The notes beneath the pieces are model-generated. The model saw only the letters and a program-made list of their open reading frames with translations. It ran no database searches and had not been told where the DNA came from. DNA of 64,000 nucleotides from contig JBAYUI010000002.1 of NCBI GenBank assembly GCA_041675165.1, positions 376-64,375 of the forward strand, given 5' to 3'. This document shows positions 10,605-13,577 of this stretch, one piece after another. A program made the translations under genes and the position numbers. Positions within the stretch are counted from its first letter, which is position 1; every line of letters begins with the position of its first letter. The stretch is from Parcubacteria group bacterium (GTDB taxonomy: Bacteria; Patescibacteriota; Minisyncoccia; Moranbacterales; UBA2206).

Positions 10605-13577
10605 ATGGAAGAAAACGCCAAATATAACCCGAAGGAAATTGAGGCCAAATGGCAGAAGTTTTGGCTTGAAAAAGGCGATTCTAAGATAGATAAAGACGAT
10701 GAAACCAAGAAGAAATTCTATATTTTAGACATGTTTCCCTATCCGTCCGGCAGTGGGCTGCATATGGGACACACGGAGAGTTATACGGCCAGCGATGTGG
10801 TTTATCGCTATAAAAAACTGCAGGGGTTTAATGTGCTTCATCCGCAAGGCTTTGATGCTTTCGGGCTGCCGGCGGAAAATTATGCCATTAAGACCGGCAT
10901 TTCTCCGGTGGAAACGACCAAGGCAAACATGGCCAATTATATCCGGCAGATGCAGTCACTCGGTTTTGCCTATGATTTTTCCGAAGCCGCGGTCACGTGC
11001 GATCCGGAATATTATAAATGGACGCAATGGATCTTCGGGGAATTTTTCAAAAACGGATTAGTATATAAAAAGACAGCCAAGACCAACTGGTGTTCTTCTT
11101 GTCAAACAGTGATTGCCAATGAACAAGTGTTGGATGGCAAATGTGAACGCTGCGGAACGGAAATTGAACAAAGAGCTGTACCGAGCTGGTTTTTCAAGAT
11201 CACGGATTTTGCCGAAGAACTAATTGGGGGATTGGACAAAGTTGATTGGCCGGAATATACCAAAAAGAATCAGAAAAATTGGATCGGAAAAAGTGAAGGA
11301 GTGACCGTTTCATTTGAAATAAAAATTTCAAATGAAAACGGAATTTCCAATTTCCAATTTCCAATTTCCAATAAAATCCAAAATCAAAATGATAAAAACC
11401 AAAAACAATTTATTGAGGTTTTTACCACCAGAATAGACACAATATATGGCGTGACTTATTTAGTTTTGGCACCGGAGCATGGGCTAGTTCAGGAACTGAA
11501 AAACGAGATCAAGAATTTTTCTGAAGTTGAAAAATATATTGAGCAAGCCAAAAACAAGACAGAGCTGAGCCGGATGGAGGCCAAAGAAAAAACAGGCGTG
11601 GAATTGCAAGGCATTAAGGCTATTAATCCATTTAATAATAAAGAAGTGCCGATTTTCATCGCGGACTATGTTTTGGCGCAATATGGCACGGGAGCAGTGA
11701 TGGCCGTGCCGGCTCATGATGAACGAGATTTTGAGTTTGCGAAGAGATATGATTTGGAAATCAAGGCAGTAATCGCCGTTGATGATTCTAATAGTTCTAT
11801 TTCTGTGGCAGTTTTAAGTTTCGCTAAAAAAATCGCGCAATATGCTTCAGAGAAAAAGATACTCGCAGTTTTCGATGGCGGAATTGGTTTGGATATTGCG
11901 TTTGGAAAAATTACCAGAAATCATGACGATATAGATTTACAAGTAGAAAGTGGTGAGCTTGATAAGTGGATAAAATATTTAGAAGAGGAAAATTTTAAAG
12001 TAAAAAAAAATCCTGATAAAAGATTTGATATTTATACGGCTGATAATGGTATTTTCCATATAGACTTCGGATGCTATATCGATCTGGATAAAAATAAAAA
12101 TGATAAGGATTATCTTATAAGAAATGTTATTGATGAGATTGAATTTGCAACTTTTAAACCAGGGGAAATATTAGAGTATAAAATTTCTGAAATAAAAAGA
12201 TTGGGAATCAAGAGACAAAAAGACTCGCATGATTTAGCCTTGCATAGCATGGAGGCTTTTGTGGAAGACGGATTTCTTATAAATTCCAGTGAGTATTCTG
12301 GATTATCTTCCAAAAATGCGCGGGAAAAAATGGCCGAATGGTTGGAAGAAAAAAAGCTTGGTGAAAAAATAACAAATTATCGTTTGCGGGACTGGTCCAT
12401 TTCTAGGCAGAGGTATTGGGGCTGTCCGATCCCGATCGTCTATTCTCCGGACGGGGAGGCGCATCTGGTTCCGGAGGAACATCTGCCGTGGAAATTGCCG
12501 ATGGACGTCGATTTTGTGCCGACCGGCACTTCGCCTTTGGCCAAGTCCGAGGAGCTGAAAAAACGGACGCAAGATTTTTTTGGTGCTGGCTGGACAGCGG
12601 AATATGACACCATGGACACCTTCGTTGATTCTTCGTGGTATTTCTTGCGTTATCCGGATGCGCACAACGACAAAGAATTTTGTTCCAAGGAGCGATTGAA
12701 AAAATGGTTGCCGGTGGACGTCTATATCGGTGGCGCGGAGCACACTTATATGCATCTGCTTTTCGCCAGGTTTTTTGTGAAAGCCATGCATCGGATCGGC
12801 CTTTTGGATTTCGATGAACCGTTTTTGAAGTTGCGCCATCAAGGGATGGTTTTGGACAAGGAAGGCAAGAAAATGTCCAAATCAAAGGGCAATGTCATCA
12901 ATCCGGACGAAATGGTGGAAAAATTCGGCGCTGACTCAGTGCGAGCGTATATGCTTTTCGCAGCGCCCTTGGAAGATGCTGTGATGTGGAATGAGGATAA
13001 TATTATTGGGGTGAGGAGGTTTTTGGAGAAAGTTTGGAAAATACAATATAAAATTACAAATGACAAATTGCAAATTTCAAATAAAGCTCAAAATCCAAAT
13101 GACCAAAATAAAAAACTAAATTCGCTGATACATAAAACCATTAAGAAAGTTGGAGAAGATATTGAAAACTTTAGATTTAATACGGCAGTGAGCCAGCTTA
13201 TGATACTCGTGAACGAGATGGAAAAACAAGAAGAATTAAGCATTACTGATTACGAATTATTGATTATTCTTCTTGCTCCATTTGCTCCACACATTGCCGA
13301 AGAAATTTTCCAAGAAGTTCTGGGTCACAAGGAATCGATATTTTTGCAGAAGTGGCCGGAGTTTTCTGAAACACTGACCAAGGATGAAGAGATCAATTTG
13401 GTGTTGCAAGTGAATGGCAAGGTGCGGGATATGGTGGCAGTGAGCGCAGATATATCAGAAGAAGAAGCGAAAGAAATCGCCTTGGTGAGTGAAAAAATCA
13501 AAAAGCATATTGCTGATAAAGAAATCAAGAAAATTATTTTTGTGAAAGGGAAGTTGGTTAATATCGTTGTAATGTAA
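10605..13577 (+). CDS. leuS: Leucyl-tRNA synthetase with an inserted nucleotidyltransferase domain and low-complexity inserts
   Basis: HMGH, KMSKS, editing-domain motifs TTRIDT and AVPAHDERD. 990 aa. Nucleotides 11760-12300 encode an ANT(2'')-like domain (GGIGLDIAFGKITRNHDDIDL). Confidence 0.95.
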   Translation: MEENAKYNPKEIEAKWQKFWLEKGDSKIDKDDETKKKFYILDMFPYPSGSGLHMGHTESYTASDVVYRYKKLQGFNVLHPQGFDAFGLPAENYAIKTGISPVETTKANMANYIRQMQSLGFAYDFSEAAVTCDPEYYKWTQWIFGEFFKNGLVYKKTAKTNWCSSCQTVIANEQVLDGKCERCGTEIEQRAVPSWFFKITDFAEELIGGLDKVDWPEYTKKNQKNWIGKSEGVTVSFEIKISNENGISNFQFPISNKIQNQNDKNQKQFIEVFTTRIDTIYGVTYLVLAPEHGLVQELKNEIKNFSEVEKYIEQAKNKTELSRMEAKEKTGVELQGIKAINPFNNKEVPIFIADYVLAQYGTGAVMAVPAHDERDFEFAKRYDLEIKAVIAVDDSNSSISVAVLSFAKKIAQYASEKKILAVFDGGIGLDIAFGKITRNHDDIDLQVESGELDKWIKYLEEENFKVKKNPDKRFDIYTADNGIFHIDFGCYIDLDKNKNDKDYLIRNVIDEIEFATFKPGEILEYKISEIKRLGIKRQKDSHDLALHSMEAFVEDGFLINSSEYSGLSSKNAREKMAEWLEEKKLGEKITNYRLRDWSISRQRYWGCPIPIVYSPDGEAHLVPEEHLPWKLPMDVDFVPTGTSPLAKSEELKKRTQDFFGAGWTAEYDTMDTFVDSSWYFLRYPDAHNDKEFCSKERLKKWLPVDVYIGGAEHTYMHLLFARFFVKAMHRIGLLDFDEPFLKLRHQGMVLDKEGKKMSKSKGNVINPDEMVEKFGADSVRAYMLFAAPLEDAVMWNEDNIIGVRRFLEKVWKIQYKITNDKLQISNKAQNPNDQNKKLNSLIHKTIKKVGEDIENFRFNTAVSQLMILVNEMEKQEELSITDYELLIILLAPFAPHIAEEIFQEVLGHKESIFLQKWPEFSETLTKDEEINLVLQVNGKVRDMVAVSADISEEEAKEIALVSEKIKKHIADKEIKKIIFVKGKLVNIVVM

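Follow-up and report, generated by a model that had tools for sequence, protein, structure and literature searches.

The leucyl-tRNA synthetase gene (leuS) of this Parcubacteria group bacterium carries a nucleotidyltransferase (NTase) domain, inserted in frame within the CP1 editing domain, and the encoded LeuRS is most likely a functional enzyme with a putative second active site. This reading follows from the retention of the host's motifs, the possession by the guest of its own fold, the conservation of its GG, RxHxDxD and third-carboxylate positions, and purifying selection on the insert. CP1 (PF13603), the host of the insert, is already a textbook case of a nested domain in class Ia synthetases, and the protein is a nest of three levels: the NTase sits in the editing domain, which in turn sits in the Rossmann catalytic domain. 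Taken together, the anatomy of the nested NTase and its predicted catalytic competence are very probable. All coordinates below refer to the window, i.e., the whole 64,000-nt stretch that was analysed (contig JBAYUI010000002.1), and all features lie on its + strand.

The synthetic and editing motifs of the host LeuRS are all intact. The gene is an uninterrupted ORF of 990 aa (10605..13577) encoding a bacterial-type LeuRS, and no second leuS copy is found in the window by tblastn. The product passes the LeuRS equivalog profile TIGR00396 (981.7 bits vs a cutoff of 548.4), and an AF2 model of the whole protein (pLDDT 83) matches the E. coli LeuRS structures 3zgz and 5on3 with target-normalised TM scores of 0.85-0.86. 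The HIGH signature of the synthetic site, read off the translation, has the form HMGH (residues 53-56; 10761..10772), of which H53, G55 and H56 are invariant across 46 aligned LeuRS (alignment A1), as are K756, M757, S758, K759 and S760 of the KMSKS loop (residues 756-760; 12870..12884). The N-terminal part of CP1 spans residues 224-390 (11274..11774; PF13603 match 224-402, profile positions 1-152 of 185). It includes three further motifs that are invariant in alignment A1: the threonine-rich TTRIDT (11424-11441), the GTG motif (residues 361-363; 11685-11693), and AHDERD (11712-11729), which contains the editing aspartate D375. CP1 also has a second variable site, here an N/K/Q-rich low-complexity segment (residues 241-268; 11325..11408) that is disordered in the model over residues 245-265 (pLDDT <50). 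In relatives, this second site contains Ser_hydrolase or PDDEXK_3 domains.

The NTase, a PF10706-family domain that we term A-type, occupies LeuRS residues 391-549 (11775..12251). It starts with AVDD, 16 residues past the editing aspartate, and ends with HSM, after which the host continues with EAF. In alignment with T. thermophilus LeuRS (Tt; 1h3n), residues 269-390 correspond to Tt 242-362 and residues 550-752 to Tt 375-580; because these blocks flank the gap, residues 391-549 stand in for a 12-residue Thermus loop (159 residues inserted, ~147 net). CP1 resumes past the insert with its C-terminal strand and helix (EAFVEDGFLINS..., residues 550-590; 12252..12374), which match PF13603 profile positions 141-178 and align from Tt 375 onward. 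Both insert junctions fold into CP1 strands in the AF2 model. The original prediction had placed ~165 extra residues within 11760-12300, an interval that brackets the actual boundaries and a length that was close to the true one. Its central claim, an ANT(2'')/Lnu-family NTase domain that is inserted in frame and translated within LeuRS, holds on the evidence of sequence, profile, fold and selection.

The similarity to ANT(2'')/Lnu enzymes quoted at the outset is genuine. Pfam assigns the segment to PF10706 (Aminoglyc_resit) at 32.5 bits within the whole protein and at 36.0 bits (E 9e-9) when excised, against a gathering score of 21, and phmmer against the PDB aligns the insert (...GGIGLDIAFGKITRNHDDIDL) to both LnuA and ANT(2'')-Ia. 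A profile built from 14 inserts recovers ANT(2'')-Ia at E 4.9e-8 and LnuA at E 6e-8. The insert has the two-lobed minimal pol-beta NTase fold seen in solved PF10706 members. Every NTase motif residue is intact in the window protein, and the motifs are conserved across the 14 insert-bearing LeuRS. The GG motif (11877..11882) comprises G425 (13/14) and G426 (14/14), and is followed by RNHDDID (11916..11936), which aligns with RKHDDID of ANT(2'')-Ia and also with LnuA. The latter motif supplies the metal-binding pair D442 and D444 (each 14/14), together with R438 (13/14) and H440 (12/14). The candidate third catalytic carboxylate is D487 (12063..12065), on the strand FHIDFG; this position is acidic in all 14 (12 D, 2 E), aligns with the LDIH aspartate of LnuA, and sits in a predicted beta strand. 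The C-terminal helix motif of the family, KDSHD (K539, D540 and D543; 12219..12233), is kept in 13 of the 14 inserts, and the R/K-x-KD-x-x-D pattern is also present in free-standing NTase homologs.

Within PF10706, the match of the A-type insert is confined to the N-terminal half of the domain (profile positions 5-86 of 149), which indicates that its acceptor pocket differs. The B-type inserts described below and the free-standing protein P0135 match positions 2-143 of the same profile. The insert scores only 21.2 bits against the ANT(2'')-Ia equivalog NF000064 (cutoff 350; profile positions 8-57 only), and 24.7-31.8 bits against the Lnu equivalogs NF000061, NF000017, NF000153, NF000141, NF000478 and NF000236 (cutoffs 300-350; N-terminal 60 residues only). 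With NCBIfam scores of 21-32 bits against cutoffs of 300-350, the insert falls within the broad PF10706 family and is not an ANT(2'')/Lnu resistance equivalog, and the suggestion of an acquired resistance-type domain is unsupported as such.

Comparison with orthologs shows both absence and presence of the insert at short distance. The nearest relatives lack it, both P0003, which is syntenic and 85.8% identical in the core, and P0005 (83.7%); no remnant of a deleted NTase is visible in the 48-aa loop of P0003. The insert is present in the same place in an independently assembled metagenome contig (L002; JGI 3300037810), in which the LeuRS is 81% and the insert 77% identical to that of the window. 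Between these two orthologs, selection on the insert is purifying, with an omega of 0.165 across its 159 codons (0.076 for the host). The insert dS is 0.66, vs 1.62 for the host; as proof of recent lateral transfer this difference was rejected, being confounded by the GC3 of 0.24. The low GC noted from the sequence is present (0.31 vs 0.417 for the rest of leuS; GC3 0.24 vs 0.45-0.48), but is a poor sign of recent import. Related inserts at ten other loci likewise lie 2-16 points under their host genes, yet track host GC from 0.22 to 0.53, and low GC was therefore also rejected as proof of recent acquisition.

The CP1 loop is a cassette-like hot spot in the LeuRS of Parcubacteria (Moranbacteria) and DPANN archaea. 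Among the 120 closest LeuRS, the loop contains a NUDIX domain in 29, an NTase in 14 and unknown domains in 7, and is short in 68. The NUDIX guests occur in sister Moranbacteria/Parcubacteria LeuRS (PF00293, 33-43 bits; 158-179 aa). An NTase-bearing synthetase, originally regarded as unusual, is thus no one-off, since this loop recurrently takes several kinds of domain. The 14 loop NTases belong to three unrelated lineages (A-, B- and C-type). A-type inserts are nearest to free-standing NTases (35-41% identity), vs 20-28% to B-type inserts, and B-type inserts are nearest to the free-standing P0135 and P0136 (43-54%). These affinities speak for independent captures, as does the position of the NTase in one LeuRS, P0025, where it comes after the FxEDG strand rather than before it. 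The three lineages and this shifted site point to at least four captures in a single CP1 region. A scan of a genome collection, with the B-type alignment alone as query, found B-type inserts in the leuS of ten species-representative genomes. Similarities of host and insert are discordant (Spearman rho 0.23): P0016 and P0025 are 85.7% identical in their hosts and 44.5% in their inserts, while P0029 and P0073 are 59.1% and 62.4% identical, respectively. The presence and absence of guests is patchy, with NTase, NUDIX and others interchanging, even between LeuRS sharing 82% identity or more.

The A-type itself is rare and divergent, as just 14 weak matches (E 1e-6 to 8e-4), all of them short free-standing proteins, were obtained in an exhaustive HMMER search of 1.84 billion representatives. 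A word-indexed search with the insert alone as query gave no match, a metagenome scan for A-type added one locus only, and a total of three further A-type loci were found beyond the window. The nearest free-standing match, P0121, is surrounded by small ORFs, with no adjoining aminoacyl-tRNA synthetase (aaRS) on its short contig. Of the B-type free-standing proteins, P0135 is encoded in a Woesearchaeota MAG, 330 bp downstream of a leuS that lacks the insert, and is overlapped by an upstream 108-aa ORF without a family in Pfam, PADLOC or PHROGs; P0136 has no aaRS on its 3.5-kb contig. The leuS-adjacent arrangement is known from a single lineage. The B-type clade also occurs nested in the B5 domain of PheRS-beta, with 58% identity to one LeuRS insert, and a more distant relative, at 34% identity, has UvrC, a protein outside the aaRS, as its host. 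The aaRS links outside LeuRS (PheRS-beta and the leuS neighbour) all belong to the B-type clade, and none to the A-type of the window.

A whole minimal ANT(2'')/Lnu NTase of the free-standing type (PF10706, ~160 aa) has been taken up in frame by a surface loop of CP1. The best explanation overall, to which we give about an even chance when taken as a whole, combines this capture with activity of the guest and its coupling to the synthetase. Characterised relatives transfer a nucleotidyl group from Mg-NTP to an acceptor hydroxyl, and by analogy the guest would do the same. Its action would probably be coupled to the synthetase in some way beyond mere co-expression, although as a separate claim we hold this coupling tentatively, at somewhat below an even chance. 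The favoured acceptor would be a visitor of the editing domain, namely tRNA-Leu, at its 3'-terminal ribose, or else a ligand or inhibitor resembling an aminoacyl-nucleotide; any particular acceptor is more doubtful still. A broader and rather speculative possibility, which we consider unlikely, is that the CP1 loop and the equivalent loops of PheRS-beta form a docking site, at which nucleotide-processing guests are swapped laterally via the conserved flanks and act in cis on the tRNA 3' end or on toxins that mimic aminoacyl-adenylates. If so, the guests would amount to an unrecognised synthetase-tethered system of tRNA repair, protection or inhibitor detoxification in ultra-small symbionts.

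Four other explanations have to be weighed against this one. It is extremely improbable that the insert is an artefact, either through assembly (a chimera or a mis-joined contig) or as an intein or another intervening sequence that would be lost before the protein matures. The source is a metagenome-assembled genome and composition changes sharply across the insert, both of which could signal a faulty join, but the reading frame is continuous and the independently assembled L002 contig has a diverged insert at the same site, so a chimera was rejected. More diverged inserts (~50% identity) occur at this position in the further assemblies P0051 and L021, and the B-type inserts of the ten genomes and the folding of both junctions into CP1 strands also argue against an artefact. 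The absence of intein splice motifs reported in the original prediction is confirmed, in that the protein has no Hint or intein Pfam match and no HN[CST] junction anywhere in its length. It is very unlikely, too, that the insert is a structural module, with the fold retained as a tRNA- or protein-binding appendage and nucleotidyl transfer lost. Appended non-catalytic domains are common in aaRS, and a few inserts do have motif substitutions (G425 to S and H440 to I in P0111; R438 to H and H440 to S in P0014), but these contrast with the intact motifs of the window protein and with the acidic residues at 442, 444 and 487 in all 14 inserts.

A passenger enzyme is possible, though we think it a good deal less probable than not. 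Here the NTase would be an autonomous small-molecule modifier, perhaps antibiotic-inactivating like ANT(2'')/Lnu, that is merely housed in a permissive loop within an essential, constitutive gene and takes no part in leucylation or editing. The inserted unit corresponds to an entire free-standing protein, and the variety of guests (NUDIX at this loop, Ser hydrolase and PDDEXK_3 at the second site) together with the UvrC host suggests permissiveness over a common function, i.e., function-independent nesting in the loops of housekeeping proteins, which counts against coupling. The inserts are also mostly mildly acidic (pI ~5; ~5.2 for the window domain), in which they resemble ANT(2''), a modifier of small molecules, and differ from typical RNA binders; this too counts against the coupled reading. 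The low equivalog scores and the half-length family alignment, however, fit poorly with a resistance enzyme. Neutral co-expression fusions are mostly end-to-end, unlike the four or more captures in one internal region, and the B-type sister lineage recurs in a second aaRS and beside leuS. A selfish or neutral insertion is improbable. Such an element, intein-like without splicing, would persist because any imprecise excision destroys an essential gene and kills the cell, and would spread by homologous recombination via the conserved flanks, at no benefit to the cell. The patchy distribution, the discordant similarities, the GC below that of the host in all ten other loci, and the nuclease-fold PDDEXK_3 guest at the second site are consistent with this, as would be a later lateral exchange read from the lower insert dS, were that value not confounded by GC3. 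Against it, the invariance of D442 and D444 and the omega of the insert would be unexpected for a functionless passenger, unless selection serves the element itself. The window insert has no nuclease of its own and no Hint domain, its flanks have only short, chance-level matches when searched for direct or inverted repeats as a mark of mobile elements, and a viral-contig scan found no copies of the NTase.

A captured, apparently active NTase has partial parallels among systems already described. The antibiotic NTases ANT(2'')-Ia (AadB) and Lnu(A) share with the insert the GG...RxHxDxD signature, a third carboxylate on the next strand and a size of ~160-177 aa, at 17-20% identity in structural alignment; unlike them, the insert is nested in another enzyme and lacks a mobile resistance context. 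The MenT/AbiEii tRNA nucleotidyltransferase toxins (DUF1814) give weak motif-level matches that all remain below threshold, with PF08843 at 13.3 bits (E 0.08) vs a gathering threshold of 22.5 on the window protein, PADLOC AbiEii models at 14-17 bits, and only AbiEii motif matches in PADLOC and PHROGs. MenT enzymes add nucleotides to the 3'-CCA acceptor end of tRNA (PMC10435456, PMC7450476), the same substrate end that is bound by the LeuRS editing domain. The insert is ~100 residues shorter than most MenT proteins and has no antitoxin partner of the kind found in the two-gene MenT module, being internal to leuS, which is flanked by a NuoCD-like gene and a gene for a sugar-phosphate NTP_transferase. 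Moreover, the insert and an essential synthetase form one polypeptide, in which an activity that arrests growth would be a paradox without some regulation.

Another bacterial class Ia synthetase with a second small-molecule-modifying domain, likened here through its NCBIfam model alone, is the N-acetyltransferase domain-containing isoleucine--tRNA ligase of NF040702, which matches the window LeuRS in its IleRS part (79 bits vs a cutoff of 1999). Here, in contrast, the host is LeuRS, the guest is an NTase instead of a GNAT domain, and it is nested within the editing domain itself. The NUDIX-bearing LeuRS are alike in loop, in size class and in having a nucleotide-processing guest, but the fold is unrelated and the chemistry opposite (hydrolysis of nucleoside-diphosphate-X vs nucleotidyl transfer). 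Inteins and other selfish insertions likewise occupy in-frame sites in essential conserved genes, with patchy distribution and a composition unlike that of the host. They differ from the insert, which has no Hint fold, splice residues, homing endonuclease or terminal repeats, and which is predicted to be a complete enzyme under purifying selection, retained once the protein is mature. In a 2026 survey covering 2.7 million domains, PF13603 is classed as "insertion-exclusive", with 213 insertion events and zero as host (PMC13114784), whereas in these LeuRS it serves as host, repeatedly.

Eukaryotic aaRS with extra domains are well known. In the searchable full-text literature we came across neither NTase nor NUDIX domains reported for LeuRS, nor any report of a second, apparently active enzyme nested in the proofreading domain of a bacterial LeuRS. 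In Candidate Phyla Radiation bacteria and DPANN archaea this architecture recurs and turns over fast, and the insert is one case of it. Action of the guest on tRNA ends, or on inhibitors of the synthetase, would mean that organisms reliant on their hosts for nucleotides have a further, new level of translation quality control or self-defence; if the guest is a mere passenger, these genes would offer a clean natural system for whole-domain insertion into essential enzymes, and for where this is tolerated. Annotation is affected as well, in that NCBI labels such LeuRS merely as "class I tRNA ligase family protein".

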